Source: an uncultured Anaerolineales bacterium
GTDB lineage: Bacteria; Chloroflexota; Anaerolineae; B4-G1
DNA length: 32,152 nt
NCBI GenBank assembly: GCA_964649415.1
Contig: CAZYSK010000067.1
Span: 191 to 32,342 of the forward strand
Reading direction: 5' to 3'
Within the stretch, counting starts at the first letter, position 1, and the number at the start of each line of letters is the position of its first letter. The notes under the pieces are model-generated. The model was not told where the DNA came from. It made no database searches and saw only the letters and a program-made list of their open reading frames with translations. A program made the translations under genes and the position numbers. Positions 1,062 to 28,265 of the stretch are shown here, in pieces.

Positions 1062-1066
1062 GAGAA

Positions 1067-2788: not shown

Positions 2789-2825
2789 CGGCACTCCGGC
2801 GGAGACCTGACGGGGCGAACAAAAA

Positions 2826-10746: not shown

Positions 10747-10811
10747 CGCAGAGGCTGTGAGGACACCCTGTGCCTATGGACGGCACCATCATTCCGCCAG
10801 CGGATGAGGTT

Positions 10812-13100: not shown

Positions 13101-13138
13101 GCCATGGACTATAATAGCACCACATATCAGGGGGGAGG

Positions 13139-13555: not shown

Positions 13556-13594
13556 CGCCCTCGGACACTTGTCGCGTCCATCGGAGATAGATCG

Positions 13595-15448
13595 GTGAAC
13601 GTCCCGGATCACGTCCGGACTCAGATCGAGACAATCCCCCGCAGGCCCGGCGTCTACCTGATGCGCGACGTCAGCAACACCGTCATCTACGTCGGCAAGG
13701 CGGTGGACCTGCACAGCCGCGTACGCTCCTATTTCCAGCCTTCCGCCTGGGACATCCCCAAGGTACGCGCGATCGTGTCTGAGGTCGCCGACGTGGATTT
13801 CCTGGTCACGGACTCAGAGCTGCAGGCGCTGATCCTCGAGGCGAACCTGATCAAAGAGCACCGTCCCCGCTACAACGTGCGCCTCAAGGACGACAAACGC
13901 TATCCATACATCAAGATCACCTGGGCCGACCCCTTTCCCCGGGTGCTCATCACGCGCCGCATGGAACAGGACGGCAGCCGCTACTTCGGCCCCTTCACCT
14001 CCAGTTCGGCTATGCACCAGACGCTCGATCTGCTGCGCAAGTCATTTCCGTACCTGACCTGCAATCGGGAGATCACTGGCCACGACGAGCGTCCCTGCCT
14101 GTACTACGACATCAAGCTGTGCCTGGGACCCTGCATTGGCGCGGTGACGCAGGAGGAATACCGGGCCATGATTCGGGGACTGGCTCGCTTCCTCGAAGGG
14201 CGGAGCGAGGAGGTGATCTCGGACCTGGAACAGCGGATGAAGGCGGCCTCCGAGGGGTGGGACTTCGAAAAAGCGGCTTCACTGCGGGACCAATTGCAGG
14301 CAGTGCGGCAGGTCGTCGAGCGGCAGACGATCGTCTCGTCGGTTGGCGCCGATCAGGACGTGGTCGCCTTCGCCCGCGAGGAGAACGACGCATGCGTGCA
14401 GGTCTTTTTCATCCGGAGCGGCAAACTGCTGGGACGGGAATACTTCCTGCTGGAGGGGACACAGGACGAAGACGAGCGGGAGGTGATGGCCGCCTTCCTC
14501 AAGCAGTTCTACGAGGAGGCAGCGTACATCCCGCCCGAGGTGCTGCTGCCGGAACAGATCGAGGAAGCTCTGATCATCGAGCAGTGGTTGAGAACCAAGC
14601 GCGGAGCCAAGGTGGCGCTCCAGGTCCCCCGCCGGGGCCAGAAGCGCCGGTTGGTGGCGCTGGCGGCGGAGAACGCCACGGAGACGCTCGCCGCCCTGCG
14701 TGCCCAGTGGCAGGCCGACGCCCACAAGCACGAGCAGGCGCTGGCCGAGATCCAGAAGGCACTGGAACTCCCAAAGCCCCCGGCACGCATCGAGTGCTAC
14801 GATATCTCCACCACGCAGGGGACAGAGATCGTCGGCAGCATGGTCGTGTTCGTGCAAGGCGTGCCGCGCAAGTCGGGCTACCGGCGCTTCGTCGTGCGCA
14901 GCGTCCACGGGCAAGACGACTACGCCAGCATGCGCGAGGTGCTCGAGCGACGCTTCCGCCGCTGGCAGATCGCCACGTCGGACGAGGCGCTGGGTAGCCG
15001 GGACATCAAGGGATGGGCCAAGCTGCCTGATCTGCTCATCGTGGATGGCGGCAAGGGGCAGCTAGGCGTGGCGGTCGAGGTGCTGAAGGCCTTCGACCTG
15101 CTTGACAGGATCCCCGTGGCCGGGCTCGCCAAGCAGCGCGAGGAGATCTTCCTCCCAGGGCGGGGGAAACCGGTCCTGCTCCCCCGCCGCTCCCAGGGCC
15201 TGTACCTGGTGCAGCGCGTGCGGGACGAGGCGCATCGCTTCGCCATCACACACCACCGCACGCGCCGGCGTCGGGCAGGCGTGGCGTCACAACTGGACGG
15301 CATCCCCGGCGTGGGTCCGGCGCGGCGCAACGCGCTCCTCAAAACCTTTGGATCGCTCAGCGCGATCCGCGCGGCCAGCGTCGAGCAGTTGGCTGCCGTG
15401 CCCGGCGTCCCACGCACTGTGGCCGTCTCTATCAAGGAGAACCTGTAG
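13595..15448 (+). CDS. uvrC: Excinuclease ABC subunit C (UvrC)
   Basis: The N-terminal GIY-YIG motif is PGVYLMRD...IYVGKA. The protein is 617 aa, the canonical length. The UvrBC-interacting region, the RNase-H-like domain and the HhH are present at the C-terminus. Confidence 0.92.
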   Translation: MNVPDHVRTQIETIPRRPGVYLMRDVSNTVIYVGKAVDLHSRVRSYFQPSAWDIPKVRAIVSEVADVDFLVTDSELQALILEANLIKEHRPRYNVRLKDDKRYPYIKITWADPFPRVLITRRMEQDGSRYFGPFTSSSAMHQTLDLLRKSFPYLTCNREITGHDERPCLYYDIKLCLGPCIGAVTQEEYRAMIRGLARFLEGRSEEVISDLEQRMKAASEGWDFEKAASLRDQLQAVRQVVERQTIVSSVGADQDVVAFAREENDACVQVFFIRSGKLLGREYFLLEGTQDEDEREVMAAFLKQFYEEAAYIPPEVLLPEQIEEALIIEQWLRTKRGAKVALQVPRRGQKRRLVALAAENATETLAALRAQWQADAHKHEQALAEIQKALELPKPPARIECYDISTTQGTEIVGSMVVFVQGVPRKSGYRRFVVRSVHGQDDYASMREVLERRFRRWQIATSDEALGSRDIKGWAKLPDLLIVDGGKGQLGVAVEVLKAFDLLDRIPVAGLAKQREEIFLPGRGKPVLLPRRSQGLYLVQRVRDEAHRFAITHHRTRRRRAGVASQLDGIPGVGPARRNALLKTFGSLSAIRAASVEQLAAVPGVPRTVAVSIKENL

Positions 15449-15662
15449 ACCCCATCCACAGCCGACGTCGACCGCGTGCAACCGAGGGCGTGTTGCGCAT
15501 TTGGCAACGGGCGGCGGGGTGACTACCCAAACTGAGTCTTCTGTGGTATAGTTGCACTGGTCAGGTCTGGGCCAGAGACCCCCCAATAAGAAGCCAGGTT
15601 TGTCACTGTCGAATTGTTAACAAGAAACCGGGTTTTTCGGAAAGACCTGGTTTCTGCTGCTG

Positions 15663-16478
15663 GTGTCACAAGAGGTGTACTTGGCCGCCCCGTATCCAGT
15701 CTGGTTGCGCTGGTTCGCATACACGTTGCTGCTCACCTCCGCCATCCCGGCAGGGCTGACCATCTACCAACTCATCAGAGCACGCCACGCCCCGTATTAC
15801 GTCTTGCGCCGGGAAGCCTTCACGCGCGCCAAGCGCTGGCTCCTGGCGTCCCTGAGCCTGGAGGCCGTGGCCGTCTTGCTGCTGCTGGCGGCTGCGTACA
15901 TCCCGAACCTCATGCCCGTCTCGCTTCCCACCTCGACCATGACGCCGACGGCCACGGCGACACGCGCGCCCACGGCCACCCCACGCCCGACTCGCACGCC
16001 AACCACGACGCCCACGCGTGCGCCCACGGCGACCCCGCCGTTTATCCCTACCCCGACGCAGGCGGTGCCTGTACCGGAGATGGCGCTCAGCCCGCTGCCC
16101 TCGGCCGTGCCGGCGGGGGAGGACGCGCGTATCGCGGTCATCACCCTCGCCACCGAGGAGGACGCCGCCGGCCAGCCCGTGGATCCGGGCAATGAGTTCG
16201 CGCCCGGCGATCACCGGGTGTACCTGTTCTTCACGTTCGAAGCCATGCAGCGCGGCGTCCCGACGACCTTCGCATGGTACAGAGACGAGGAATTGATCGA
16301 ATTCTGCTCGGACACGTGGCTCTGGGGGCAGGCCGAGGAACGCGACTGGGGCGAGAAAGGCAGAACCTCGTACTACTGCAAGCCGCCGGTGGGGTGGGAG
16401 CCGGGGACGTACGAGATCCGCGTCTTCATCGAGACGCGGCTGCAGGGCATCGCGCAGTTTGCGATCAGGGAGGAATGA
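15663..16478 (+). CDS. Hypothetical membrane-anchored protein with a Pro/Thr-rich linker and a C-terminal globular domain (start uncertain, GTG)
   Basis: It has two N-terminal hydrophobic helices and a PTATATRAPTATPRPTRTPTTTPTRAPTATP linker. The C-terminal ~110 aa are Trp-rich. No RBS is obvious. Confidence 0.4.
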   Translation: MSQEVYLAAPYPVWLRWFAYTLLLTSAIPAGLTIYQLIRARHAPYYVLRREAFTRAKRWLLASLSLEAVAVLLLLAAAYIPNLMPVSLPTSTMTPTATATRAPTATPRPTRTPTTTPTRAPTATPPFIPTPTQAVPVPEMALSPLPSAVPAGEDARIAVITLATEEDAAGQPVDPGNEFAPGDHRVYLFFTFEAMQRGVPTTFAWYRDEELIEFCSDTWLWGQAEERDWGEKGRTSYYCKPPVGWEPGTYEIRVFIETRLQGIAQFAIREE

Positions 16479-16554
16479 GAGGTGTTGCGGGCTGCGTGAT
16501 GCGTGTTGCTCAATCCTGGCCCGCCACAACGCAATCGTGAGCATGCATCAAGCA

Positions 16555-17220
16555 CTACATCAGCATCAGCACGAGGGCCAGTGCCGATACGGCCGGCACG
16601 GTCAAGTTGTCGATGCCCCACGGTGAACATGCCTCGACGAGTACGGCGGCCAGCGCCGTCACGGCCGCGGCTCCCGCAGCAGTGACCGCGCCCAACGATC
16701 CAGGGCCCAGCAGCAGGAGCGGCACGAGCGTCGCGATCCAACTGATGAGGAACAGCACCACAGACCCCTCCAGCGAGCGGGTGCTCCCGGCGACGGTGTA
16801 GCGCCGCTGCCCGATGCGCCGCCCCACCACCGCGGCCAGCGCGTCCCCCCACGTCATGGGCATCAGGCTGGCCACCAGCAGGTCGGGCCTGCCCCACAGC
16901 AGCCAGATCAGGGCCGCGAACGATATCGGGAAATAGACGGTGCCCAACTGGCCCTTCTCCCCGGTCTCCATGGCCTTGAACGTCCCGCGCCAGTAGGACA
17001 AGGCGTTGATAACGACGAAGGCCAGCGGCGGAATGATGGCGAAGGCGCGGCGCTCGAACAGCAGTACCGTCCCGAAGGCCCACATGCCGACGGCGATGTG
17101 GATGAACTTGCGCGTGAAGTCCACGGAATAGCCGCGCCACATGCGCAGCCCCTCGGCGACGCCGATGGCGGCGAAAACGTAGGCGAAGGAGGATAGTAGA
17201 GCGATGGTATCTTGGGGCAT
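16555..17220 (-). CDS. CTP-transferase-1 family membrane protein (CdsA / phytol-kinase / dolichol-kinase-like)
   Basis: It is a polytopic membrane protein. The motifs TRKFIHIAVG, GDALAAVVGRRIG and EGSVVLFLIS match the VTE5/DolK/CdsA family. Its start lies 9 nt after the REC-CHAT stop. Confidence 0.55.
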   Translation of the reverse strand: MPQDTIALLSSFAYVFAAIGVAEGLRMWRGYSVDFTRKFIHIAVGMWAFGTVLLFERRAFAIIPPLAFVVINALSYWRGTFKAMETGEKGQLGTVYFPISFAALIWLLWGRPDLLVASLMPMTWGDALAAVVGRRIGQRRYTVAGSTRSLEGSVVLFLISWIATLVPLLLLGPGSLGAVTAAGAAAVTALAAVLVEACSPWGIDNLTVPAVSALALVLMLM

Positions 17221-17229
17221 CGTTGCACC

Positions 17230-18732
17230 TTACACTTGATGGATGAGGATGGGCGACAGCCACGTGGTATCGTTGCGATCAATGGACAATTCGCACCTTG
17301 CATGCCAAAGCGCAACTTCTGGTCTGCCCTGGTCCAGCAGGGACTTATAGAAGGCCAGGGCCAATCGCCGAGCGCCGTCGTCGGATACAGGCCAGCGATA
17401 GCCCACCACCGAGGGCACACCGGCCTGGGCGACTGCATCGGCCAATCCGAGGAAGTCATCATCGAGCAGAGCAACCTTTCCACCCGACGCTGTGCCGTAG
17501 CAACTGCTCAGATAGACGAGGCGCACCCCCGATTGCCCAAGTAGCAGCCTGACTTCGGTCGCCCGCATAGGCACGATGCCCCCTTGCTTGTCCGCCTCAG
17601 CCCAGAAGTAGAGGCTACTTTCTTCGGGAGAGTCGGCCTCATAGGAACCATGCCCTGCATAATGTACCACGTCGTAGTTCTGTGCCTTCAACTCTGCTCT
17701 GACGCGTTCGTATGTGGCTTGTTCCGTGGCGATGAGCTTCACGTCAACCGGGATACGATCCTGGCCTTTCAAATAACTGGATAGCTCTTGTGCCTCGGCA
17801 TCAGCCCCATCAATCGGAGGCAGAGTCTTCGAAGTCGTGTTCGACGCGATGATCAGCACGCGCAGTTCTTTCGTCAGTGCCAGCACGCGAGGCGAGATCG
17901 CTTCGCGCTTTGGGGTAGCCTCACACACAAACCGGGCAAGCGGATGCTGAAGCACCAGGTATTCCTGAGGGGCATCCGAGTACATGAACTCCATTGGAAG
18001 ACACACATACTCCCTGGGAGTCTCAAATTGCAGCGAGAGCAACTGGCTGCTGGCACGGGCCGTCAGATAGGTCTCTTTGGCCTCGGGTTGCTCACCGAAT
18101 ACGTCACGCCATAGGTCGCGACCGATCTGCTCGACCTGCAAACGCAGGTTGTTCCAGTCTTGCCTGGCAACTTCGGTCCTCCTCGCATATCGCTCGACGT
18201 CTAGCACCAGCGCCCTGCCCGACCGCCGGGAGCAAACGTGATAGCCACGCGATCTTATCGCCAAGTGCTGCCTTGCCACAAGAGACAGGGACAGCCTGGA
18301 TTCATCGCCGAAATTCTTAAGCTGTGGTTCTCTTGGCTCGTCGCATATCCCCGGCCTGTCTCTCGTCTCCGCGATGATCTCCAAGACTTGTTTGACCACA
18401 TCTGGCGTCTTCTCGACGAATTGCTCTACCCCAAGATACCGAATCGCGCGGACGATTTGCTTGGCCCTCACATAGCGCGTTAGCAAGATGACGTGGACCT
18501 TCGGATCCAGAGCGCGGAAAGCCATCGCCAGACTCGAACCACTTTCGTCCTCCTCGCCACCTTCGTGCAGACGTACATCAATGAGCGCAAAATCGAAGGG
18601 CTCCTGTATGACCGCGTCCAGTGCCTGTCCCTCATTGGATGCCACCCGCACGGTATGCCCCTCATCGGAGAGCCGCCCGCGCAATGTATCCCGGAAGTCA
18701 GGCTCATCGTCTACTACCAGTATCTTGTACAT
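17230..18732 (-). CDS. Response regulator with N-terminal REC and C-terminal CHAT (caspase-like) protease domain. The start is MYKIL at 18732 with a GAGGGGG RBS. The ORF extends to 18834.
   Basis: The REC domain reads ILVVDDEPD...LIDVRLHEGGEEDESG...ILLT...K. The CHAT His/Cys dyad context is VVHYAGHG and RLVYLSSCYGT, with the typical ~400-aa CHAT layout. Confidence 0.75.
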   Translation of the reverse strand: MYKILVVDDEPDFRDTLRGRLSDEGHTVRVASNEGQALDAVIQEPFDFALIDVRLHEGGEEDESGSSLAMAFRALDPKVHVILLTRYVRAKQIVRAIRYLGVEQFVEKTPDVVKQVLEIIAETRDRPGICDEPREPQLKNFGDESRLSLSLVARQHLAIRSRGYHVCSRRSGRALVLDVERYARRTEVARQDWNNLRLQVEQIGRDLWRDVFGEQPEAKETYLTARASSQLLSLQFETPREYVCLPMEFMYSDAPQEYLVLQHPLARFVCEATPKREAISPRVLALTKELRVLIIASNTTSKTLPPIDGADAEAQELSSYLKGQDRIPVDVKLIATEQATYERVRAELKAQNYDVVHYAGHGSYEADSPEESSLYFWAEADKQGGIVPMRATEVRLLLGQSGVRLVYLSSCYGTASGGKVALLDDDFLGLADAVAQAGVPSVVGYRWPVSDDGARRLALAFYKSLLDQGRPEVALWHARCELSIDRNDTTWLSPILIHQV

Positions 18733-18797
18733 CGCTACGCCCCCTCGCGCCATCGCCTGCGACTGTGGAAAAGGATCACCGGACAAGCCACTCAGAC

Positions 18798-19688
18798 TCA
18801 CTCGACTGCGTCCCACCTCTCCCGTATGTAGCACATGGCCGCCCTAACATCCAGGTTCCGCGTCGAATTGCCCATACGCACCCAGAACTCGTGAGAGTCA
18901 CCCTTGCCCAAGAAAACCGGCCTTGGGCTTTCGTCAATGGAGACGGCGCAGATGCGCTTGCCATCCATCAACTCGAAACGTGGGTGGATATACAGCACGT
19001 ATTCCGCACCCAAATTGACCTGGACAATATCGGTCAGCAACAGTTGGAATCCGTCGATATCTGACTTGCGCAGGGTCTGCAAGTCTCTTTCAATACCCAG
19101 TATCGTGCCATCGTCAGCGACGCCAAGGAGCAGATGCCCGCCCCCGCAATTCAGCATCCCGGCTATCGCCCTGGCAATCTCCTCCTGCAATCTCTTGTTG
19201 ACTCTGTTCTGCCTGTAGTCCCAACGAATACTGGACTTAAACTCCACCCGGTCATTCTCACCCTGGGCGATCAATTCGACGACATCTGGGGCCGCGCATT
19301 CAACCGCGCGCTTCACATATCCCGGCAATTGACTCACTTCGGATTTCTCCAGGAAGCCAAAGGCTGGCGCAACCCCGTCGTGGTCCGGTTGGAGGGCCTC
19401 ACGCACCATCTTGACGTCCGCGTAGCCGGTCAAGATGATGATAGCCACGCTGGGGTCCTTCTCTCTGATCTCGTGCATGAGCACAAGGCCGTCGCGGTTT
19501 TCTTCGTCAGCCTCGTCCAGGCGGACGTCCAGGACTGCGACGTGAAAACGCTCGGCATCCACCATGTGCAGAGCTTCGGCTCTGCTGGACGCCAAGCGTA
19601 CGTCGTAACCATCGTCTGACAGAAGACCCGACAGCGTCACGCGCACGTCGGGCAGATCATCCACGACAAGAACGCGCCCTCTGTGCAC
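18798..19688 (-). CDS. Response regulator with N-terminal REC and C-terminal AlbA_2 (Schlafen-like) domain. The start is GTG.
   Basis: The REC domain reads VLVVDDLPD...VLDVRLDEADEENRDG...IILTGY...EKS. The C-terminal segment ENDRVEFKSS...AIAGMLNCGGGHLLLGVADDGTILGI...FWVRMGNSTRNL matches the AlbA_2 / Schlafen core. It lies 24 nt downstream of the preceding REC gene. Confidence 0.7.
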   Translation of the reverse strand: MHRGRVLVVDDLPDVRVTLSGLLSDDGYDVRLASSRAEALHMVDAERFHVAVLDVRLDEADEENRDGLVLMHEIREKDPSVAIIILTGYADVKMVREALQPDHDGVAPAFGFLEKSEVSQLPGYVKRAVECAAPDVVELIAQGENDRVEFKSSIRWDYRQNRVNKRLQEEIARAIAGMLNCGGGHLLLGVADDGTILGIERDLQTLRKSDIDGFQLLLTDIVQVNLGAEYVLYIHPRFELMDGKRICAVSIDESPRPVFLGKGDSHEFWVRMGNSTRNLDVRAAMCYIRERWDAVE

Positions 19689-19712
19689 CAGACTCCGCCT
19701 ACCCCCTCTGCC

Positions 19713-20114
19713 CTACCGCGCTAGTACTTCCCCCACAACCCGCACCAGATCCTCAGTTTCTGTCTTGGGGATATAGTTGGCCACAAGTCGCTGGCCCTGT
19801 GCATCCGGTTCCATCGCCCGACGCATTATATCAGATGTACCATAGCCCGTGATCATTACGACTCGGATTGCAGGCCAGCGGTGCCTGATCTCGGCTGCCA
19901 GATCCAGTCCCTCAGTGTTACCTTCGTCCGTCTCGTCCAGTCGCACGTCCAGCAGCGCTAGATCAAAATGACCAGTCCCAAGCAATTCCAGCGCCCTCTC
20001 CTGAGACCCGGCGCACTGGACGTCATATCCTGCGTCCTCCAGCAAGCCACTGAGCGTCGCGCGCCAGTCGGGCAGGTCATCCACTACCAAGACTCTGTTA
20101 GGTCCATCTGTCAT
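19713..20114 (-). CDS. Stand-alone CheY-like response regulator (REC only)
   Basis: The domain reads VLVVDDLPD...LLDVRLDETDEGNTEGL...VMITGY...IPKT. It shares the DVRL(D/H)E-acidic insertion with the REC domains of the CHAT and AlbA_2 proteins. It overlaps the upstream gene by 4 nt. Confidence 0.8.
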   Translation of the reverse strand: MTDGPNRVLVVDDLPDWRATLSGLLEDAGYDVQCAGSQERALELLGTGHFDLALLDVRLDETDEGNTEGLDLAAEIRHRWPAIRVVMITGYGTSDIMRRAMEPDAQGQRLVANYIPKTETEDLVRVVGEVLAR

Positions 20115-20503
20115 TGTCCCCCTCCTTCGCGGTTATCATGACGTCGATGCCCTATCGCGGCGGACGAGGGAATAATACCCTCGACGTGCTCAACCAGGTC
20201 CCGGTCACCGAAGGATTTGGCGAAATAGCGCTTGGCCCCCAGCCGGTAAGCCGCCAGGGCCTCCTCAGTCGTGGGCTGGACGGTCGTCACCACGACCCGC
20301 TTATCGGCGTATTTCTCGGCGATGATCTCAAGCACGTCCAGGCGGCGGGAACTCGCGATGACCAGATCGAACTGGTTCGCCTCAAGCTCGGTGATGGCAG
20401 TCTCCTTGTCAGGCGCGACGACTATCTCGAACTGGTTCAAGTCGTTCTTGGCGAACTCTATCCAGCAAGGTTCATCGTCGATGATCAGAATGCGCGTTCT
20501 CAT
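20111..20503 (-). CDS. Atypical (pseudo-)receiver domain protein that apparently lacks the phospho-acceptor Asp
   Basis: The REC fold is recognisable: ILIIDDEP in beta1, VVVTTV carrying the Thr, and YFAKSF carrying the Lys. Beta3 reads FDLVIASS, so the acceptor Asp position holds Ala. It overlaps both the HK stop and the next REC gene by 4 nt. Confidence 0.65.
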   Translation of the reverse strand: MRTRILIIDDEPCWIEFAKNDLNQFEIVVAPDKETAITELEANQFDLVIASSRRLDVLEIIAEKYADKRVVVTTVQPTTEEALAAYRLGAKRYFAKSFGDRDLVEHVEGIIPSSAAIGHRRHDNREGGGQ

Positions 20504-23500
20504 CGCGACACCTCCCCTCCTGCCCCTGGCGCTGGGATATGAACCAGCATGGTCGTTCCCGTGGAGTCGCTGCGCTCTATTTTAACATCACCGCCCAGAC
20601 TTTGCAACATCAGGCTGTTCAACCACAACCCCAGCCCGCTCCCCCCTCTCGGCTCCTTGGAAGGGACGGGCTTGGCGAACAGGCGTTGCTGAACTCTGGA
20701 TGGAATGCCTGGCCCCGTATCCCGAACGCGCACGCAGATGCTGCCGTCCGTCAGACGGCTGGCAACAGTCAACCGACCGCCGTCCTCCATCGCACGATAG
20801 GCATTGTCAGCCAGGTTGCGAAAGACCTCGGAGACCTGCCCAATGGGGGCCTGGATCTGCGGAATGGAGTCGTCCAGGTCCAGAGTAACCGCTATCGCCG
20901 AACGAACCGGGTCGGCTTGCCATCGCTCTCTCGTCCTGCCCACCACGTCATTCAGCACGGCATTGACGTCCACCGCCTGAACCTCGATCTCCCGCAGCGG
21001 CTCCTGGATGCGCGCGATGATCTCCGAGGTATAGCGGGCGTTGCGCTCGATGATGTCGAGGATCTCGGCGATGGTTTCGTCCGCGACGTCCACGCGCTTG
21101 CGCAGGCGCGTCACGTTGGGGACGATGATGTTGAAGGTGTTGTTGATGCGGTGCCGCAGCGCCGCCATTGCGGTGCCCAGCGTCGCCAGTTGCTTGGCGG
21201 CGATGGCCTCGCCGCGCGCTTGCTCATACAGCCGGGCGTTGTCCAGGGCGATGGCAGCCTGGCTGGCCATGGAGAGTAGGACTTGCAGGTCCTGCTCATC
21301 GTAGGCATGTTCTCGCTCCCAATCCTGCATAGCGATCACGCCCAGCGCCCTCTCGCCTATGACCATAGGAACACCTAGCCAAGAACCTGACAAACGTCCA
21401 ATGAACTCTTGGTGTCCGGGTTGCCCATACCACGCCTCGGCCTCCGCCGACGTGCGATGCAAGATGGGTTCCTTGGTGAGGATGATCTCTTCGGTCTTGC
21501 CCCGCCTCTCCATATCCGCCTGGCGGGATTCGTAGTGTACCCGTTCTCCCTGCTCCGTCGCCAGGCCGAAGTGGATCGTGTTCGCTTCCCCATCGTACAA
21601 GGCGATGTACATGTCCTGCGCGCCCGTCAGCCTCTTCGCCTGTTCGTAGATCAGTTCCAGGATCTCGTCTTGCTTCAGGCGAATCCCCGACGTCAATGTT
21701 CTCCCCACCTCGTTGAGCGCCGCCAAGGCCTCCACGCGACGCGCCAGCTTGCGGTTGACGTCGTAGTAGAGCTCTGCGTTGTCCAGCGCGATGGCGGCCT
21801 GGCTGGCCATGGAGGAGAAGACCTGCAAGTCTCGATCATCGTAGGCATGCTCTCGCTCCCAATCCCACAGGGCGAGCACGCCCAGTACTTTCTCACCCAC
21901 CACCATCGGAACACCCAGCCAAGAGAGTGGAACTCGTCCAATGAACTCTTGGTGTCCCGGCTGCCCATACCAGGCTTCGGACTCCGCCAGGGTGCGATGC
22001 AAGATGGGTTCCCTGGTAAAGATGACCTCTTCGGTCTTGCCTCGCGTCTCCATATCCGCCGGGCGGGATTCGTATTGCACCCGTTCGCCATGCTCCGTCG
22101 CCAGGCCGAAGTGGATCTCCCCCTTTTCCTCATCGTATAAGGCGATGTACATATCCTGTGCGCCAGTCAGCCTCTTCGTCTGTTCGTAGATCAACTCCAG
22201 GATCTCGTCCTGCTTCAGGCGAATGCCGGACGTCAGTGTCTGCCCAACCCCATTAAGCACCTGCATAGCATCGCTAAACGCCTGCATAGCCCCATAGGCA
22301 CGTGCGCTCTCAATGGCCACCGCGGCTGCCCCGGCAAGCGCCTCAACCAGGCGCACGTGATCCTCTGCGAATGCTCCAGCCTCCGTGCTCTCCAGGTCCA
22401 GGATCCCAATCACCCGGTCACCATAACGCAAGGGTGCCGCCAGTTCAGACTGCACCTCGGCGTACCATTCCTGGTAATACGGATCGTCCTGGACATCGCG
22501 GCAGACGTAGGTTTCTCCCGTCGCAACCACGTGCGCGCTGATGCTGTTCCCAGAGAGAGGCAGACGGGACGTGCTGCGCGTCGGTTCCTTCTCCACCGCG
22601 TTCATGGCCCCGAAGCGCAGCTCAGTGCCGTGCTCGTCCAGCAACCAGACGCCGGTGTAGGTGGCCGGGGTAAGCCGGGCCGCGTATTCCGCGATGCGCT
22701 TCAGCAAGCTTTCCAGCGGCGCCTTTCCAATGAGGGCGTATATCTCCTGGAGGACTCGAATATCGTCCACACGTTCCTGGAGCCTGGCCCGGGTCTCCTC
22801 GTACAGCTCGGTGGTGCGGAATGCCACGGCCGCTTGCGCCGCCAGGGCCTCTGCCAGGTGCTGGTCGGCCTCGCTGAAGGCGTTCAGCCGGCTGCTTTCG
22901 GCATTGAGCACGCCGACCAGCCTATCGCCCGCCAGCATCGGAACGTCCAACTCCGACCGGGTGGCCTCCACGTGACACTTGTACCGGGGATCCTGCGACA
23001 CATCCGTGACGCGCACCGGCTCGCGCGTCTGGGCTGCGGTGCCGATCAATCCCTCACCCAGATCGATGCTCCTGTCGGGAGACTTGCCCATCGCGTACCT
23101 GAATTCCAGGCTTCCGGTTCCCGGATCGAACACGCTGATGGACCCAAACTCGCAATTCAGGAGTTCTAGGGACCGCTCCAACGTCCGCTGCAGCAATTTG
23201 TCTCTGTCCAGCACGGAGGTGATGTCACGTGCGATATCTTGAAGCGTCTCGCGTTGCTGGAATAGCTGAGCGTTGCGAATGGCGACCGCCGCCTGGTTGG
23301 CGAACAACTGGATCAGTTCCTGCTGTTCCGCCGGGAACCCTTGTGGTGTGCGGTAGTTGACGAACAAGATACCCACCGCCTCGTCGCCGACCAGCAACGG
23401 AATCGCGGCCGTGGAGGCGATCTGCTCCCTGAAGATGAAGCGCCGCTCCGGCATGCCCTCTCGGGCGATTTTGAAGGGGGCCGAAAGAAGCGGTTCATGC

Positions 23501-25281
23501 TGCGCGTCCGCAGCGAAGAGGGGGCGACTCAACGTAAGGACCTGCATCGCCACGTCGTCAGGCAGGATTTTCTTGGACGGCTTGACTTCCACCAGCATTC
23601 TTCCTCCAGAGACGTGATCAGCGACGCGATCCCGTCTGCCTGGACTGTAGCGATACAGCTCAACCAGATCAGCGCCTAACACACCCCTGGCCTGTTGTGC
23701 AATCTGCTGCAGCAGATCCTCAAGACTTTCCCCCGTCACCTCGACGGTGCTCAGACGCTGCCCCACCTTGTTCAGCGCTTCTAGCGCCTGGATCCGCCTC
23801 TGGATCTGCTCATACACGCGGGCGTTGTGGATCGCCATGGCCGCCTGGTTGGCAAGCAGTTCGATGACCCTCCGTTGATCAGGTGGAAACTCCTGGCGGG
23901 TCCGGTAGTTGACGAACATGACACCTACGGTCTCGCCAGCGGCCTTGAGCGGCACGGAAGCCGAAGACAGGACCCCCTCGCGCACGACGAAGCGCCGGTC
24001 CGGGCGCTCAGGACGCTCGACGGTGAACGAGCCGCTGAGCAAGCGATCAGCCTGGGCATCGCGCGTATAAAGCGGCTCGCCGCGCTTGACAACTTCTACC
24101 GCGATGTCGTCCCCGAAGATGTGCTCCTTGACGACATCGGGGACCCGCCGCTCCCCTTCCAGGATCGGCGGGAGGATGTACCGCTCCTCCCTTTCGACGT
24201 ACTGATACACGTCAACCAGGTCGGCACCCAGCACATCCCTGGCGCTCCGCGCCACGTGCTGCAATACCCTTGGCAATCCTCTCGCCGACACCTCGGCCGA
24301 TAGCAGTTCCTCCCCGATCCGATGCAACCTCTCCAGGGCCGCCGACCGGCTGGTCTCCTGCTCGATCAGCCTGGCGTTGCGCAATGCGGCCGCCGCCTGA
24401 CCTGCCAGTGTCTCCAGGAGCACCTGGTCCCGTTCGTCAAAGGCCGCCAGGCCGTCCTTGTCGGCCGAGATCACCCCGACAACCTCGTCGCCCAAGGTCT
24501 TGATGGGCACCACGAGCATTGAGCGTTCAGAGGCCTGTGAAGACCAGCCACGGACAAACCGCGGGTCATGCACCGCGTCCATGACGAGCGCCGGCTCCCC
24601 ATTCTGGGCTACCCAACCGGCCAATCCCTCCCCAATGGCAAAGCTCCTCTGCTCCACGCCCTCCGCGGACCGCGCCGCCATTTTGAGCACATCGGCGCTC
24701 TCATCCATCCGGAATATGCTGACGTGCTGGCAATCCAACACGCGCGCCGCAGACTGTGTGATATGCTCGAGCAGCCTGGGCAGTTTCAGGTCGGAGTTGA
24801 TCCAGAGGCTCACTTCGTTCAGGACCGCCAGATCCCGTATCCATCGCTGCGCGACAGCTACCTGCGCGGCCAGACCCTGGGCCAGAGCCTGCTGAGAATC
24901 GCTGAAGTCTCTAGCCTCGTACGCATAGACGTCCATGACTCCCACGACCGTGTTTTTCACCCGTAACGGCACTACCATGGCCGACTCAAGCCCCACGGCG
25001 GATGCCTCTTCCTTGAACGCCCAGCGGGCGTCCGAGGCGATGTCTTTGACTACAATCGGGCGCCCCGTCTTGAACACCTCCGACCCGACGCTGATTTCGT
25101 CCAAAGGCAGGGCCGCCGTGCGCATATAGTCACCCGGCAGGCCCTCGGATGCAACAAGGCGCAGAGCTTGCTTGACCTCATCGAGGAGCCAGATGCCGAC
25201 CGGCAACTCCAGGATCGAGCCGATTGTACCTACCAACGGTTGAAGAAACCGCTTTTCGCCAGGCCCTGTAGAGGCAGACAT
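20500..25281 (-). CDS. Soluble multi-GAF sensor histidine kinase (about 8-9 GAF domains, HisKA and HATPase_c), 1593 aa
   Basis: It has no TM helices. GAF-like units with inter-domain ALxNARLYEQ linkers recur along the protein. The C-terminal H-box is AALRHRINNTFNII. HATPase_c reads RNLADNAYRAMEDGGRLTV...VRDTGPGIP...GGSGLGLWL. A strong GGGGGGAG RBS precedes the ATG. Confidence 0.85.
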   Translation of the reverse strand: MSASTGPGEKRFLQPLVGTIGSILELPVGIWLLDEVKQALRLVASEGLPGDYMRTAALPLDEISVGSEVFKTGRPIVVKDIASDARWAFKEEASAVGLESAMVVPLRVKNTVVGVMDVYAYEARDFSDSQQALAQGLAAQVAVAQRWIRDLAVLNEVSLWINSDLKLPRLLEHITQSAARVLDCQHVSIFRMDESADVLKMAARSAEGVEQRSFAIGEGLAGWVAQNGEPALVMDAVHDPRFVRGWSSQASERSMLVVPIKTLGDEVVGVISADKDGLAAFDERDQVLLETLAGQAAAALRNARLIEQETSRSAALERLHRIGEELLSAEVSARGLPRVLQHVARSARDVLGADLVDVYQYVEREERYILPPILEGERRVPDVVKEHIFGDDIAVEVVKRGEPLYTRDAQADRLLSGSFTVERPERPDRRFVVREGVLSSASVPLKAAGETVGVMFVNYRTRQEFPPDQRRVIELLANQAAMAIHNARVYEQIQRRIQALEALNKVGQRLSTVEVTGESLEDLLQQIAQQARGVLGADLVELYRYSPGRRDRVADHVSGGRMLVEVKPSKKILPDDVAMQVLTLSRPLFAADAQHEPLLSAPFKIAREGMPERRFIFREQIASTAAIPLLVGDEAVGILFVNYRTPQGFPAEQQELIQLFANQAAVAIRNAQLFQQRETLQDIARDITSVLDRDKLLQRTLERSLELLNCEFGSISVFDPGTGSLEFRYAMGKSPDRSIDLGEGLIGTAAQTREPVRVTDVSQDPRYKCHVEATRSELDVPMLAGDRLVGVLNAESSRLNAFSEADQHLAEALAAQAAVAFRTTELYEETRARLQERVDDIRVLQEIYALIGKAPLESLLKRIAEYAARLTPATYTGVWLLDEHGTELRFGAMNAVEKEPTRSTSRLPLSGNSISAHVVATGETYVCRDVQDDPYYQEWYAEVQSELAAPLRYGDRVIGILDLESTEAGAFAEDHVRLVEALAGAAAVAIESARAYGAMQAFSDAMQVLNGVGQTLTSGIRLKQDEILELIYEQTKRLTGAQDMYIALYDEEKGEIHFGLATEHGERVQYESRPADMETRGKTEEVIFTREPILHRTLAESEAWYGQPGHQEFIGRVPLSWLGVPMVVGEKVLGVLALWDWEREHAYDDRDLQVFSSMASQAAIALDNAELYYDVNRKLARRVEALAALNEVGRTLTSGIRLKQDEILELIYEQAKRLTGAQDMYIALYDGEANTIHFGLATEQGERVHYESRQADMERRGKTEEIILTKEPILHRTSAEAEAWYGQPGHQEFIGRLSGSWLGVPMVIGERALGVIAMQDWEREHAYDEQDLQVLLSMASQAAIALDNARLYEQARGEAIAAKQLATLGTAMAALRHRINNTFNIIVPNVTRLRKRVDVADETIAEILDIIERNARYTSEIIARIQEPLREIEVQAVDVNAVLNDVVGRTRERWQADPVRSAIAVTLDLDDSIPQIQAPIGQVSEVFRNLADNAYRAMEDGGRLTVASRLTDGSICVRVRDTGPGIPSRVQQRLFAKPVPSKEPRGGSGLGLWLNSLMLQSLGGDVKIERSDSTGTTMLVHIPAPGAGGEVSR
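21236..22315. repeat. Intragenic tandem duplication: two ~540-bp (180-codon) GAF-domain units with high nucleotide identity inside the multi-GAF HK gene
   Basis: Unit 1 starts with GCGTTGTCCAGGGCGATGGC at 21236 and unit 2 with GCGTTGTCCAGCGCGATGGC at 21776, a period of 540. The encoded peptides LTSGIRLKQDEILELIYEQ(T/A)KRLTGAQDMYIALYD...GQPGHQEFIGR... are near-identical. Confidence 0.85.
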
Positions 25282-25486
25282 ATGCTACTCCCCCCCAAGT
25301 TTAGCTAGACCTAGTGCAGAATCGGTGATGTTTGCGTAAACCAATTGCTAGAGCGCCAACGGGGCCGCATTGGCGTTCACTCGGCCTGGAGAAACACCCA
25401 CGCTCTGGCTACAGATATCCCCCCAGGTTATACTCAAGCCCAGATCGTCTGGGCCAGAGCGGAACCCCCGGTCTTCGCACAGAACT

Positions 25487-26827
25487 TCAATTGCGCCGCG
25501 CTTGCCTCCAGGCATCCAATTCAGCCTGGTATTCCGCTTCTGCAAACGCCAACCCCTTTTCCCGTAGCATCATAGCTGTGAGAACGTGAGGCAGGCCCTT
25601 TCGCTTCTCCAGGAACAGGATTTGAGAACCAGTGAGCGTATGCCCACCATTATCACTCAGGAATCGGTCAAGTTGGCGTCGCCCGCGCACCACGGTTCTC
25701 ATGAAACGCTGGGACTCACCCAAGAAATAGGTCATCAAGCGCTTCTCGTCCTCCGGCGTCGCCCGCAGGGAGCGATGAACCGTCCGGGAAATACAGCCCA
25801 TCACTCCCGGCAGGAATTCCCCGGACTCGATGCCGAGGACAATTTGCCGCGTCACGATGCCCCGTATCAGTAGCTTGACGATTCTCTCCCGGCCGTTCTT
25901 GCCCGGGGGAGGAGCCCCGTCCGCGACCAGGGTATACAGTGCCTTGGAATAGTCCGCAATCACGTGCTCGCTGGCACGGACCAGTGATTCCGGCATGTGA
26001 GAGGCACGCACGAAACCATGGATCGTGTCCACAAGGGGCCGGTAGGCATCCGTCTCAAACACCGACGCAGCGCCCTGCGAAATCATGGCCACGCGCTCGG
26101 TGCCGATGACCGTCTCAGCGAAGGGCTCCGCCATCTGACGCAGAGACCTGCTCTGGGGATCGAGTTCGCGGGAGATGAAGAGGGAATTGGAGAACTCGAC
26201 AAAGCGTCCGCACTTGCAGCCCGGCCTGCAAGCCGGCCCGCAGGCCTTTTCGGCACCCAGGTCATAGAACAACTCCGTGTTCGGCCCTGCCTTGCGGGGG
26301 GTCTCCATACCGTCAATCCCGCCGCCTTGCACCCAGTAGTTGTCATCCGGTCCCAGGCCAATGACGTGATCCCCGGGCACCCCTACCTCGATCCAGGCTC
26401 GACGTGTGACCCCGTCCCCCGGCAGATGCTCGCCCAAGACCGCCCCGCCCTCAAAATAGGAGACCCAGATGCGGCTCTGATCTATGCCGAGAACAGACGT
26501 GGCCAGTGTCCACATACGCCGAATGGTTTCGGCTTTCCCGTTTGGACCAAAGACAAATGCACCGGGCATTTCGAACAAGCTCAGGTGCGTGCCGTCAGTT
26601 CCGACCTTGTCGAGATCGAAGTGGCGAAAACACTCCTGAACGAGGACGAATTGGTCGCCGGGTCTTTCGTCCACCCGGGCCAGGGAGGTCTCTATCTGAA
26701 CTAGGCCGGCACTCATCACGTAAGACATGGGAATAGATGGGTGAAGCATAGGGGCGCGGGGCAGCGGGTGAAAGCCAAGTCCTTCGTAGTAACCTACAAA
26801 GCGCCGACGGATTGCAGAAGCGTTCAT
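25487..26827 (-). CDS. Truncated, divergent alanyl-tRNA-synthetase-like protein (class II catalytic core plus tRNA-recognition domain only; no editing or C-Ala domains), 446 aa from the ATG at 26827
   Basis: Alignment to AlaRS is recognisable. N-terminal IRRRFVGYYEGLGFHPLP corresponds to IRQ.FLDFF..KGH. QECFRHFDLDKVG..THLSLFEMPGAFVFG corresponds to QRCVRAGGKHNDLENVG..HHTFFEMLGNFSFG. AGPNTELFYDLG corresponds to CGPCTEIFYD. RFVEFSNSLFI corresponds to RYIEIWNLVFMQF. LTGSQILFLEKRKGLPHVLT corresponds to the tRNA-recognition DAFKLYDTYGFPLELT. The AGGKHND ATP-binding segment is shortened. The upstream in-frame ATG at 26881 lies upstream of the predicted promoter. Confidence 0.65.
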   Translation of the reverse strand: MNASAIRRRFVGYYEGLGFHPLPRAPMLHPSIPMSYVMSAGLVQIETSLARVDERPGDQFVLVQECFRHFDLDKVGTDGTHLSLFEMPGAFVFGPNGKAETIRRMWTLATSVLGIDQSRIWVSYFEGGAVLGEHLPGDGVTRRAWIEVGVPGDHVIGLGPDDNYWVQGGGIDGMETPRKAGPNTELFYDLGAEKACGPACRPGCKCGRFVEFSNSLFISRELDPQSRSLRQMAEPFAETVIGTERVAMISQGAASVFETDAYRPLVDTIHGFVRASHMPESLVRASEHVIADYSKALYTLVADGAPPPGKNGRERIVKLLIRGIVTRQIVLGIESGEFLPGVMGCISRTVHRSLRATPEDEKRLMTYFLGESQRFMRTVVRGRRQLDRFLSDNGGHTLTGSQILFLEKRKGLPHVLTAMMLREKGLAFAEAEYQAELDAWRQARRN

Positions 26828-26861
26828 ACTGACCCCTCTCACAGCTACACGCGGAACAGAG

Positions 26862-26900
26862 GCTACAATATTGTACCACACTTATCGGGGTTATGCAACA
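26862..26900 (-). promoter_or_regulatory. Predicted sigma70-like promoter of the AlaRS-like gene: -35 TTGCAT, 17-bp spacer, extended -10 TGgTACAAT
   Basis: On the minus strand the sequence reads TTGCATAACCCCGATAAGTGTGGTACAAT. A ~35-nt 5'UTR with a GAGAGGGG RBS precedes the ATG at 26827. A second copy with TTGCAC / TATAAT is conserved at 32060..32088. Confidence 0.55.
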
Positions 26901-26996
26901 CATTCCAGTGTCCTGAGCTCAAGCGGTAACCTCGATGTGCCATTGCGCTTGCCAACGTAAACCAAGACCACCGGCACCGCGTTACCATCATCTGCC

Positions 26997-28037
26997 CTAT
27001 GCCGGCTTCAGAAGTGCGCTCACGATACCGATATCCTGCCACGTGACCGTTTCCTCCTCAGGCACGCCACCGATCACAATTGGGGCAACGGGGGGAAACT
27101 GGATCTTTCCCGTCCCCGGATCACGGACAAACCTGCCATACTCCCACTCTTTCTGATCGACGTTCCATACCACCGCGTGCCCCGTCGCCGGTGGGACAGC
27201 ACCTCGCGCCCAGGCCGCCAGGACGTAGTCCCCCTCGTTGCTGTGTGGTCCAGCCCACCGATCTCGTGGGACGCGGACTGCAAAGCTGCGAGCATCCCAC
27301 GGGAGCCACAGGTTGGTGCCAAACGGCATGCCGTCTTCCGGGTGATACAAACGGTATCTCCGCTCATCGATATCGATCTCCGAGGGGATCAAGCAGCCTC
27401 TCGGCTCCGCACGCAGGAGCCCATAGCCGTTCCCTGTGACCACGGGGATATGCACGGCTGCTGCGCCATCGACCAGCGAAAGGTCATCCGCCAGACACCG
27501 GCACAGGGCGTTGATCCAACTGAGTGCGTGCTGGCACTTGTCTATCTGCTGACTGCATTCTTGTGTTCGCGATGGGTCTCTGAAGCGATTATCCTCCCAA
27601 TACTTGATCGCTTCGCCAAAGGCCTTGATCGCACGCTGGTAATCGACCAGCGCCTTGGTCCTGGATCCTAGCGCACAGTGGAGCAAGCCCCGCAGGTACA
27701 CGACGACAGCTTCGATATGGCGCTTGTTCTGGTAGCCAGGCAGTAAGCCAAGCGCTTTGGCAGCCTCTTGACAACAGTCCAGCGCCGGTCCCCATCGATC
27801 AGTCTCTCGATACAGGTCACCCATCCAGATACAAAGGACGCTCTCACTTGCAGAATGATGACAGGCTCGCGCGAACGCGTGGGCCTCTTCAATGCATCGA
27901 ATAGCCCTATTCACGTCGCCCAGGCACCAGTACTCTGAGCATTTCATCGTGGCAGCGGAGACTACAGATGGCAGCCCATTCTCGCACACCAGTGCTCTAG
28001 GCGCCAGGTCTGGGGGCAATCCCGTGATCACAGGCAT
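26997..28037 (-). CDS. Hypothetical protein with an N-terminal Cys-rich TPR-like helical domain and a C-terminal LexA/S24-peptidase-like beta domain that lacks the catalytic Ser and Lys
   Basis: The N-terminal ~190 aa are helical with TPR-like A/L/Y periodicity. The C-terminal HIPVVTGNGYGLL...FAVRVPRDRWAG..GDYVLAAW...GHAVVWNVDQKEWEYGRF...VTWQDIGIVSALL aligns to LexA segments LPLVGRVAAGEPLL, LLRVSGMSMKDIGIMDGDLLAV, GQVVVARIDDEVTVKRL and GLAVGV, with Ser replaced by Arg and Lys by Gly. A GGAG RBS is 8 nt upstream. Confidence 0.45.
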   Translation of the reverse strand: MPVITGLPPDLAPRALVCENGLPSVVSAATMKCSEYWCLGDVNRAIRCIEEAHAFARACHHSASESVLCIWMGDLYRETDRWGPALDCCQEAAKALGLLPGYQNKRHIEAVVVYLRGLLHCALGSRTKALVDYQRAIKAFGEAIKYWEDNRFRDPSRTQECSQQIDKCQHALSWINALCRCLADDLSLVDGAAAVHIPVVTGNGYGLLRAEPRGCLIPSEIDIDERRYRLYHPEDGMPFGTNLWLPWDARSFAVRVPRDRWAGPHSNEGDYVLAAWARGAVPPATGHAVVWNVDQKEWEYGRFVRDPGTGKIQFPPVAPIVIGGVPEEETVTWQDIGIVSALLKPA

Positions 28038-28265
28038 GGTTACACTCCAGTGGCTCTATGCCGGTCTGCCAGAACACCACCAATCACCGAATAGTCCTTG
28101 ATCTCGCAAGCTCTTTCAGACTACACTGCAGAAGCATCTGCATACCGCAGCATGGCCGCGTAGCGGAGTAACTCAGATGCGCCGGTTGAGGCAGCAAGTT
28201 GATCGTGTCGCCTCCAGCGATCCAGGATCTCGGAGAGCGCCATCATCCTGCGCTGGTGGCAACTC

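Follow-up and report, generated by a model that had tools for sequence, protein, structure and literature searches.

The Detocs system consists of a histidine kinase, a stand-alone receiver (REC) protein acting as a buffer and a receiver fused to an effector (DtcA/DtcB/DtcC; Rousset et al. 2023, bioRxiv 10.1101/2023.01.24.525353). It was found that the defence provided by this system needs the histidine of the kinase and the aspartic acid residue of the receiver, that mutation of the acceptor Asp in DtcB makes the system toxic and that effector domains are swapped between systems (10.1101/2023.01.24.525353). Detocs is the closest experimentally characterised system to the gene cassette considered in this work, which was found in a DNA stretch of 32,152 nucleotides (hereafter, the window) from an uncultured Anaerolineales bacterium of the phylum Chloroflexota (GenBank assembly GCA_964649415.1, contig CAZYSK010000067.1, positions 191 to 32,342, forward strand). 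The data are best explained by a functional unit of six genes on the minus strand (17230-26827) encoding, in the order of transcription, a protein similar to alanyl-tRNA synthetase (AlaRS), a histidine kinase with eight GAF domains, a pseudo-receiver, a stand-alone REC and two effector regulators, REC-Schlafen and REC-CHAT. With moderate confidence, and judging from sequences, we regard it as a Detocs-like module that would be triggered by phosphorylation and would lead to growth arrest or defence through several effectors, having no transcriptional output. An earlier description of the window, made from its letters alone (hereafter, the sequence-only reading), drew no link to Detocs.

Effectors of the types encoded here are known from other systems. 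SAVED-CHAT is a protease that becomes active when a ligand drives it to form filaments (8tl0), and Cash (Csx15-Schlafen) is activated through filaments induced by cyclic oligoadenylates, cA (PMC13462974). Prokaryotic Schlafen (pSlfn) tRNases, which defend against phage and are fused to diverse sensors, carry Ex4(E/D)xK as their catalytic signature (PMC13056530). The definition of the EAD, TCAD and Trypco domains comes from work on NTPase-centred conflict systems; among vWA-associated effectors, receivers are sporadic and no histidine kinase domains were found (PMC7159879). Literature searches on REC-CHAT proteins, GAF kinases with CHAT and AlaRS paralogs, which did not cover Burroughs and Aravind 2020 (J Bacteriol), returned no description of a cassette composed of AlaRS-like, GAF-kinase and REC-effector genes.

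Gene Order, Conservation and Effector Exchange

All genes of the cassette lie on the minus strand. The AlaRS-like gene (25487-26827, 446 amino acids, aa) precedes the kinase gene (20500-25281, 1593 aa), from which it is separated by 205 nt, a larger gap than in most relatives. The gene of the pseudo-receiver (20111-20503, 130 aa) shares an ATGA overlap with the kinase stop codon, and that of the stand-alone receiver (19713-20114, 133 aa) overlaps the pseudo-receiver gene in the same way. The REC-Schlafen gene, designated below as REC-AlbA_2 (18798-19688, 296 aa), starts with GTG after a gap of 24 nt, and the REC-CHAT gene (17230-18732, 500 aa) follows after 65 nt. The likely start of the latter is the ATG at 18732 (MYKIL...), which has GAGGGGG ahead of it, the mechanically predicted open reading frame (ORF) extending to 18834. 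At 9 nt beyond REC-CHAT, there is a gene of a membrane protein (16555-17220, 221 aa), hereafter gene 6. In the sequence-only reading, the kinase gene was the 5'-most and gene 6 the last of six tightly packed minus-strand genes with 4-nt overlaps or gaps of 9-65 nt. The packing agrees with the coordinates, and the limits of this operon turned out to be wrong at both ends, gene 6 being a neighbour and the AlaRS-like gene, located upstream and outside the range then described, having been missed. The domains proposed at that time were confirmed by Pfam in the case of eight GAF stretches, the kinase core, four REC domains, SLFN_AlbA_2 and CHAT, and the assignment of gene 6 to CTP_transf_1 was left without a profile match. 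A scan for promoters and terminators was uninformative, giving fewer sites than in shuffled sequences and none in the intergenic gaps, and in Rfam no RNA family scored above the threshold in any part of the window, the 205-nt gap ahead of the kinase gene being no exception.

The comparison covered approximately 160 related loci, which were collected from contigs with REC-CHAT homologs, from a scan of species-representative genomes and from a metagenome scan with the AlaRS-like protein, and were searched with the proteins of the window; individual loci are denoted below by L and a number. The order AlaRS-like protein (~446 aa), multi-GAF kinase, pseudo-REC, REC, REC-X and REC-CHAT recurs in more than 25 independent loci of Chloroflexota, so the arrangement is not accidental, and the orthologs, for which a synteny search had been suggested earlier, proved to be syntenic and not scattered. 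In five loci, the unit from the AlaRS-like gene through the last REC-effector gene is surrounded by unrelated flanks (L003, L004, L086, L087, L168). Since the same order is kept with different flanks, the cassette moves as a unit.

The third and fourth regulators are exchangeable in their outputs. Slot 3 is occupied by AlbA_2 or by TCAD9, a domain similar to APH/RIO kinases, and slot 4 by CHAT or TIR. AlbA_2 is combined with CHAT in about 11 loci in addition to the window and with TIR in about 4, while TCAD9 is accompanied by CHAT in about 9 loci and by a TIR-like domain in about one. Further variants include REC-EAD7-CHAT, TIR-REC-CHAT and a Trypco1 gene located after REC-CHAT. The TIR domain of the TIR-REC variant resembles those of the defence proteins PDC-S66, bSEFIR and ThsB. 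An output that binds DNA was detected in none of the scanned regulators. A simpler core, namely kinase, REC-TCAD9 and REC-CHAT, is present in Acidobacteriota, and an even shorter one, kinase and REC-CHAT, occurs in Desulfobacterota, Myxococcota and Bacteroidia.

Effector Regulators

In REC-CHAT, the CHAT domain (PF12770) was recognised by Pfam with an E-value of 8.6e-35 (121 bits at a cutoff of 24) and the receiver with 5.6e-14. The caspase-like dyad is formed by His361 (HYAGHG) and Cys411 (SSCYG); neither these two residues nor the acceptor D52 vary among 26 homologs with 48-68% identity. The AlphaFold2 (AF2) model of this protein has a predicted local distance difference test (pLDDT) score of 77.7. 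Its best fold match in the PDB is the activated SAVED-CHAT filament 8tl0 (E 1.4e-9); it also matches separase 9hn4, and its receiver part matches the NtrX receiver. Thus, the CHAT assignment made from sequence is borne out by the profile score, the invariant dyad and the fold. More than 200 full-length homologs with 46-69% identity are known, mostly from metagenomes of Chloroflexota/Anaerolineae.

The second effector regulator, REC-AlbA_2, contains a receiver (Pfam, 2.8e-18) and an SLFN_AlbA_2 domain (PF04326; 5.6e-16, 59.6 bits at a cutoff of 25.3). The predicted nuclease motif E144-x4-E149-x-K151 (E144-NDRV-E149-F-K151) together with D192 is invariant in 7 orthologs; from the sequence and the ortholog alignment, the codons of this Schlafen-type motif ENDRVEFK (Ex4ExK) were located at 19236-19259 on the minus strand. 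Both the score, which is above the threshold, and the invariant motif uphold the earlier AlbA_2 assignment. Weak sequence matches in the PDB are to SLFN12, SLFN5, SLFN13 and SLFN14. Among the best 150 HMMER matches, the REC + AlbA_2 architecture is represented by about a dozen 50%-identity clusters, and the nearest other AlbA_2 domains are fused to ORC/CDC6-like (STAND-like) ATPase, CHAT with AAA_16, trypsin and GmrSD-N modules. Judging by its motif and profile, REC-AlbA_2 appears to be a Schlafen-type nuclease, most likely a tRNase.

Receivers

Response_reg domains were found by Pfam in all four small proteins, with E-values of 1.1e-10 for the pseudo-REC and 2.2e-18 for the stand-alone REC. 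Alignment with CheY revealed that the pseudo-REC has Ser at the position of CheY Asp57 and keeps the Thr and Lys residues, and the phospho-acceptor Asp is missing in 14 out of 14 of its orthologs, so this protein was rightly named a pseudo-receiver before. The stand-alone REC (D56), REC-AlbA_2 (D54) and REC-CHAT (D52) keep the complete set of residues, i.e. the acidic pair, the acceptor Asp, Thr and Lys, and the Asp, Thr and Lys of the stand-alone REC are conserved at a level of at least 90% in its 26 orthologs. The three intact receivers have in common an acidic insertion of 5 residues that follows the acceptor Asp (DVRLDE..E....GL) and is likewise found in the 26 orthologs of the stand-alone REC, in agreement with the paralogy proposed from it earlier. 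As had also been noticed earlier, none of the four regulators has a DNA-binding output detectable by the Pfam scan.

The pseudo-receiver probably regulates the kinase directly, since its gene is translationally coupled to that of the kinase and the two proteins are fused in one related locus, which may be regarded as a Rosetta-stone hint. In that locus (L010:11519-13561), the pseudo-receiver is attached to the C-terminus of the kinase, and the fusion gene is located after REC-CHAT and not before it. By analogy with DtcB of Detocs, we propose that the stand-alone REC may serve as a buffer or sink for phosphate.

Kinase with a GAF Array

The kinase contains eight GAF stretches (GAF_2, E 1e-147; about aa 20-1356), followed by a DHp helix and HATPase_c (Pfam, 1.2e-16). 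No convincing transmembrane segment was found by the hydropathy scan, which indicates a soluble protein. Pfam gave no HisKA match in the kinase, the DHp helix thus being divergent. Its H-box reads LGTAMAALRH1377RINNTFNII, and His1377 is invariant in the alignment of 20 kinase cores. The codon of this predicted phospho-accepting residue, within the motif AALRHRINNTFN, occupies positions 21151-21153 of the minus strand. The ortholog consensus of the H-box is LGTAxAALqHRInNT, and the N box, DTGPGIP and GxGLGLW (N, G1 and G2) are conserved in the 20 orthologs as well. The description of this protein as a multi-GAF histidine kinase is justified by both the eight Pfam GAF matches and the conserved H, N, G1 and G2 boxes.

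A repeat search detected a tandem duplication that gave rise to GAF7 and GAF8 (21227-22066, minus strand), whose copies (21227-21526 and 21767-22066) are 82% identical at the nucleotide level and spaced by 540 nt. The length of the ortholog kinases varies from ~590 to 1927 aa, and that of close relatives from 933 to 1912 aa, i.e. the number of GAF domains is variable. This recent duplication and the wide range of lengths among close orthologs suggest that the GAF array expands and contracts rapidly.

In three loci (L005:11513-13814, L006:1516-3784 and L011:11602-13875), a short kinase and then another, divergent paralog of REC-CHAT come after the cassette. This kinase, about 255 aa in length, consists of DHp and HATPase_c and has no sensor domain. 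In L024, the membrane enzyme gene comes after the second REC-CHAT paralog.

Protein Similar to Alanyl-tRNA Synthetase

The protein encoded upstream of the kinase matches Pfam tRNA-synt_2c (1.6e-55), and the profile of its family can be aligned over the full length of the N-terminal AlaRS fragments 9jdn, 3hxu and 1riq (E 2e-64 for 9jdn) and matches the Escherichia coli structure 3hxz with an E-value of 3e-61. Its identity with bacterial AlaRS is about 30%. In the numbering of E. coli AlaRS, the equivalents of R69, E209, N212 and of G239/E241/R242 in motif 3 are invariant, and the W170 equivalent and the Arg of class II motif 2 are kept, so the core of a class II enzyme is present. The alanine pocket is altered throughout the family (D235 to Glu, G237 to Val, V214 to Leu; E. 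coli numbering), and the loop 70-AGGK-73 is deleted. In E. coli, Lys73 of this loop is in contact with the 3' end of tRNA. Four new invariant cysteines appear (C196, C200, C204 and C206), and the protein stops after the tRNA-recognition domain, at 446 aa, without editing or C-Ala domains. Because of the changed pocket, the lost loop, the new cysteines and the missing editing and C-Ala domains, it looks like an adenylate-forming or tRNA-binding paralog and not like a housekeeping synthetase, as far as this can be judged from the residues.

A scan of metagenomes anchored on the AlaRS-like protein alone found the GAF kinase directly downstream in 59 of the 62 loci with enough downstream DNA. The median apparent gap between the two genes is 33 nt; this value is approximate, as the ORFs were extended mechanically to the first start codon and several gaps are negative. 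Hence, the AlaRS-like gene is the most constant partner of the kinase and belongs to the module. Since it is constant while the outputs vary, we propose that its product may stand on the sensing side. More distant AlaRS-like/kinase pairs carry REC-EAD11, REC-x-TIR, HD-CE-REC or one plain REC. The sole regulator in five of the loci (L093:15547-16404, L096:11879-12733, L135:7356-8225, L100 and L141) is a REC protein of approximately 285 aa, whose C-terminal part of about 160 residues is an output domain with no family match in Pfam.

Comparison with Described Systems

Like Detocs, the cassette is a putative operon whose sensor histidine kinase is cytoplasmic; it also includes a stand-alone receiver that could absorb stray phosphate and regulators with a presumably cell-damaging effector in place of a DNA-binding domain, and the effectors are exchanged between loci. 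The three-part architecture of Detocs is thus found here with two effector regulators and an additional pseudo-receiver, while DtcA/B/C sequence similarity (as far as PADLOC shows), the TPR sensor and the PNP effector of most DtcC proteins are not: Pfam gives a GAF array in the kinase and no PNP. The sensor of Detocs is a TPR domain, whereas here it is the GAF array together with an AlaRS-like partner; a single PNP ATP nucleosidase serves as the effector there, in contrast to the two effector regulators in this cassette, which comes from Chloroflexota and is known from its genes alone.

The CHAT protease, Schlafen tRNase and TIR chemistries are shared with effectors of type III CRISPR and CBASS (SAVED-CHAT 8tl0, Cash PMC13462974, TIR-SAVED), in which a small sensor domain is attached to each effector and activates it by oligomerisation, as is also proposed here. 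However, those effectors sense cyclic oligonucleotides by SAVED/CARF-like domains, whereas the domain in the corresponding place here is a phospho-accepting receiver; the signal there is a nucleotide second messenger, and here it would be a phosphoryl group from the histidine kinase. Neither Cas10 nor CD-NTase is encoded nearby. With pSlfn proteins (Nat Microbiol 2026, PMC13056530), REC-AlbA_2 has in common the SLFN_AlbA_2 domain with Ex4(E/D)xK and the fusion of a nuclease to a separate sensor. It differs in the C-terminal position of the nuclease domain and in having a kinase-fed receiver as the sensor; the main text of that article lists fusions with HATPase-like, HTH, Ig-like, DUF262 and other domains and does not mention receivers there (PMC13056530).

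The NTPase-centred ternary conflict systems (Kaur, Burroughs, Iyer and Aravind 2020, PMC7159879) use the same domains, namely caspase-like CHAT, TIR, TCAD9, EAD7, EAD11 and Trypco1, and, like this cassette, they are enriched in multicellular or filamentous bacteria. The cassette is controlled by a histidine kinase, and the MoxR, vWA, STAND or GTPase core is absent. Membership in this group was considered and rejected, as the NTPase core and the VMAP/iSTAND component are lacking in the window and in the related cassettes. Finally, the AlaRS-like protein has the whole aminoacylation and tRNA-recognition fold of AlaRS441 (3hxu, 1riq, 9jdn) with the residues of motifs 2 and 3, but differs from it in the pocket, the deleted loop, the cluster of four Cys and the nearly constant linkage to a GAF kinase.

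Membrane Gene and Surroundings of the Cassette

The product of gene 6 is a polytopic membrane protein, which had been described as similar to CdsA or phytol kinase. No Pfam or NCBIfam family matched it even at E=1, and PDB sequence searches, both with the single sequence and with the family profile, gave no matches. In public sources, its homologs are named phytol kinase, dolichol kinase or CdsA (phosphatidate cytidylyltransferase). In Foldseek, the four top matches of its AF2 model (pLDDT 71) are all Thermotoga maritima CdsA (4q2e, 4q2g), with weak scores (E 0.016-0.1, TM-score 0.36). The only grounds for the CdsA/phytol-kinase family are the public names and the weak fold match; we regard this assignment as plausible, if weakly supported.

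The sequence-only reading treated this enzyme as the terminal member of the operon, which is contradicted by synteny, by the level of conservation and by composition. The protein is conserved at 78-95% identity over more than 120 clusters, far above the proteins of the module, and the GC content at third codon positions (GC3) of its gene is 0.88, as in uvrC and pcrA, versus 0.60-0.77 for the module genes. In L084, the ortholog of gene 6 is located directly after the genes SPFH-SPFH-TPR, with no cassette in between; in L085 and L099, the membrane gene is on the other side of the cassette, and in L085 it is contiguous with SPFH-SPFH-TPR. Most cassettes, including those of L003, L004, L008, L016, L018, L086, L087 and L168, have no gene 6. 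Having been tried as a part of the module, it was rejected on these grounds and is a housekeeping-like neighbour that is probably co-transcribed with the cassette.

In the window, two SPFH genes (667 and 482 aa) and a TPR gene (26997-31714, minus strand) lie upstream of the AlaRS-like gene. The contiguity of these genes with the membrane gene in L084 and L085, together with the properties of gene 6, shows that the cassette sits between the TPR and membrane enzyme genes of an older SPFH-SPFH-TPR-enzyme neighbourhood, which it interrupts here. The SPFH pair stands on the other side of the cassette in four loci (L005, L012, L014 and L123), so it is conceivable that the two are linked in function.

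There is a compositional step at the end of the cassette. From the cassette through the TPR and SPFH genes (17230-31714), the GC content is 0.58-0.62 and GC3 is 0.60-0.77, and on the side of the membrane gene, uvrC and pcrA (9454-17220) these values are 0.65-0.67 and 0.81-0.88, respectively. The 14-kb block as a whole could be of foreign origin or be expressed at a lower level. A minus-strand ORF at 15666-16544 (292 aa) was examined as an additional downstream gene and rejected as a shadow ORF (GC3 0.62; GC content at first codon positions, GC1, 0.84). The real gene in this place is the plus-strand ORF 15663-16478 (GC3 0.86), which is called on that strand in the public record, has no Pfam match and converges on the cassette.

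Other genes of the window include a second unusual two-component cluster (114-4447, plus strand) with a REC-REC protein (114-1061), a pyridoxal phosphate-dependent enzyme (PALP) with a receiver fused at its C-terminus (1067-2788) and a hybrid kinase of the REC-HisKA-HATPase type (2972-4447); a PALP enzyme is an uncommon receiver-linked output. The gene at 6649-9165 (plus strand) encodes a protein of 838 aa that contains a CARDB domain and weakly matches glycosyl hydrolases, and the gene at 9454-10746 (minus strand) encodes a 430-aa GNAT acetyltransferase. Like uvrC, pcrA/uvrD and a gene of the YjbQ family, these two belong to ordinary chromosomal flanks.

Proposed Mechanism and Alternative Explanations

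In our opinion, the cassette may work as follows. The AlaRS-like protein and the GAF array would jointly read a cytoplasmic cue, after which the kinase would autophosphorylate on His1377 and pass the phosphoryl group to the three paralogous receivers. The stand-alone REC would buffer a leaky signal and set a threshold, as was proposed for DtcB, and the pseudo-REC, which is not phosphorylatable and is coupled to translation of the kinase, would modulate the latter. Phosphorylation of the other receivers would lead to their dimerisation or oligomerisation and switch on the Schlafen-type nuclease, a likely tRNase, and the CHAT protease, in parallel to the cA-induced filament activation of SAVED-CHAT and Cash. 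Cleavage of tRNA, shut-down of translation and proteolysis would then result in growth arrest or cell death, probably in the context of phage infection or another severe intracellular insult. The idea of a phosphorelay that gates a protease and an effector targeting nucleic acids, and is not a transcriptional two-component system, was already put forward in the sequence-only reading; it gains support from effector swapping, the invariant Schlafen motif and CHAT dyad, the SAVED-CHAT-like model and the fusion partners of the AlbA_2 relatives. In a bolder version, which we offer tentatively and consider rather unlikely to hold in full, the AlaRS-like paralog is the primary sensor of an undescribed immune-type two-component system. 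It would perceive a signal related to tRNA or adenylates (for example, damaged, foreign or uncharged tRNA) or supply an aminoacyl-adenylate or diadenosine tetraphosphate (Ap4A)-like ligand to the rapidly expanding GAF array. In both cases, the kinase would fire several effectors gated by receivers at the same time, namely a Schlafen tRNase, a CHAT protease and, in relatives, a TIR or a kinase-like domain.

Some observations weigh against a Detocs-like role. The cassette is widely and fairly stably kept in Anaerolineae (46-81% identity), which fits a physiological function too, and it is not located in an obvious defence island, having uvrC, pcrA, a GNAT gene and SPFH/TPR genes as neighbours. 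In many distant AlaRS-like/kinase pairs, a plain REC is the sole regulator, so the core is not strictly tied to killing effectors, and no evident substrate of the protease is encoded in the window. Among the plasmids of PLSDB, REC-CHAT was not found, with only distant CHAT-only matches, so there is no sign of mobility there. PADLOC gave only weak domain-level matches for the REC and CHAT proteins and nothing named Detocs, the presence of Detocs models in that release being unconfirmed; its REC matches were SduA, PDC-M60B/C and PD-T4-6, and it has no models for the AlaRS-like, TPR and SPFH proteins.

Several of these facts suit another credible, if less likely, explanation, according to which the cassette is not an antiphage device but a switch of physiological stress, dormancy or differentiation. 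The status of amino acids or tRNA charging would be reported by the AlaRS-like protein and the GAF array, and the kinase would convert it through regulated proteolysis and tRNA cleavage into a slow-growth or developmental state in filamentous Chloroflexota. The CHAT protein HetF acts in the differentiation of cyanobacteria, which provides an analogy. A paralog of tRNA synthetase is appropriate for a metabolic sensor; in one clade, the cassette has a stable chromosomal place beside SPFH-SPFH-TPR; it is common and well conserved within Anaerolineae; neighbouring genes of defence or mobile elements are absent; and simple receivers are the only regulators of many distant pairs. However, the swapping of CHAT, TIR, Schlafen, TCAD9, EAD and HD-CE domains is typical of conflict systems and not of housekeeping regulators, and fairly close relatives have the cassette in different genomic contexts. 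The rapid change in GAF number, with a recent duplication in the window itself, and the similarity of the TIR in the TIR-REC variant to PDC-S66, bSEFIR and ThsB also argue against this explanation.

The remaining alternatives concern parts of the system. It is very improbable that the membrane enzyme is a functional end member of a six-gene operon, for example an output remodelling membrane lipids: the short distance of 9 nt from the REC-CHAT stop to its start, the absence of a terminator-like site between them and the same adjacency in L007, L024, L090, L092, L101 and L102 favour this idea, but it conflicts with the order without the cassette in L084, the opposite position in L085 and L099, the lack of this gene in most cassettes and its high conservation and GC3. 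We give even less credence to the AlaRS-like gene being a split or fragmentary housekeeping alanyl-tRNA synthetase without a signalling role. The alignment of the whole catalytic and tRNA-recognition fragment with the arginines of motifs 2 and 3, as well as the distance from the kinase gene in the window, beyond that in most relatives, might be explained in this way; the downstream GAF kinase in nearly all of the scanned loci, mostly at a short (approximate) distance, the family-wide changes in the pocket, the deletion of 70-AGGK-73, the cluster of four new Cys and the low identity might not. It is also highly unlikely that the receivers act independently of the kinase, e.g. as nucleotide-responsive switches of the kind proposed for some RECs of conflict systems, or that the effectors are catalytically dead scaffolds. 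REC domains of conflict systems without histidine kinases have indeed been noted (PMC8195603, PMC7159879), yet here there is always an adjacent kinase, whose His and ATP-binding boxes are intact; the receivers have a complete set of phospho-acceptor residues, and neither the CHAT dyad nor the Schlafen motif varies.

Conclusions

If the reading of the cassette as a Detocs-like module is true, the principle of Detocs, in which a histidine kinase directly arms toxic effectors, extends to Chloroflexota, a large phylum rich in uncultured bacteria, and, through the simpler kinase/REC-CHAT versions, to Acidobacteriota, Desulfobacterota, Myxococcota and Bacteroidia. The CHAT, Schlafen and TIR effectors of cyclic-nucleotide immunity could then be gated by phosphorylation of a receiver as well. 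The sensor partner is unexpected, as a remodelled domain of alanyl-tRNA synthetase is almost always linked to the kinase with the GAF array. Should the more tentative proposal about this protein also be correct, it would be an immune sensor derived from a tRNA synthetase, and the whole system would be a phosphorylation-based counterpart of the cyclic-nucleotide signalling in CBASS and type III CRISPR. The cassette offers proteins on which it may be tested whether phosphorylation of REC activates a caspase-like protease and a Schlafen nuclease, whether a paralog of aminoacyl-tRNA synthetases participates in sensing and whether multi-GAF arrays serve as diversifying recognition modules.

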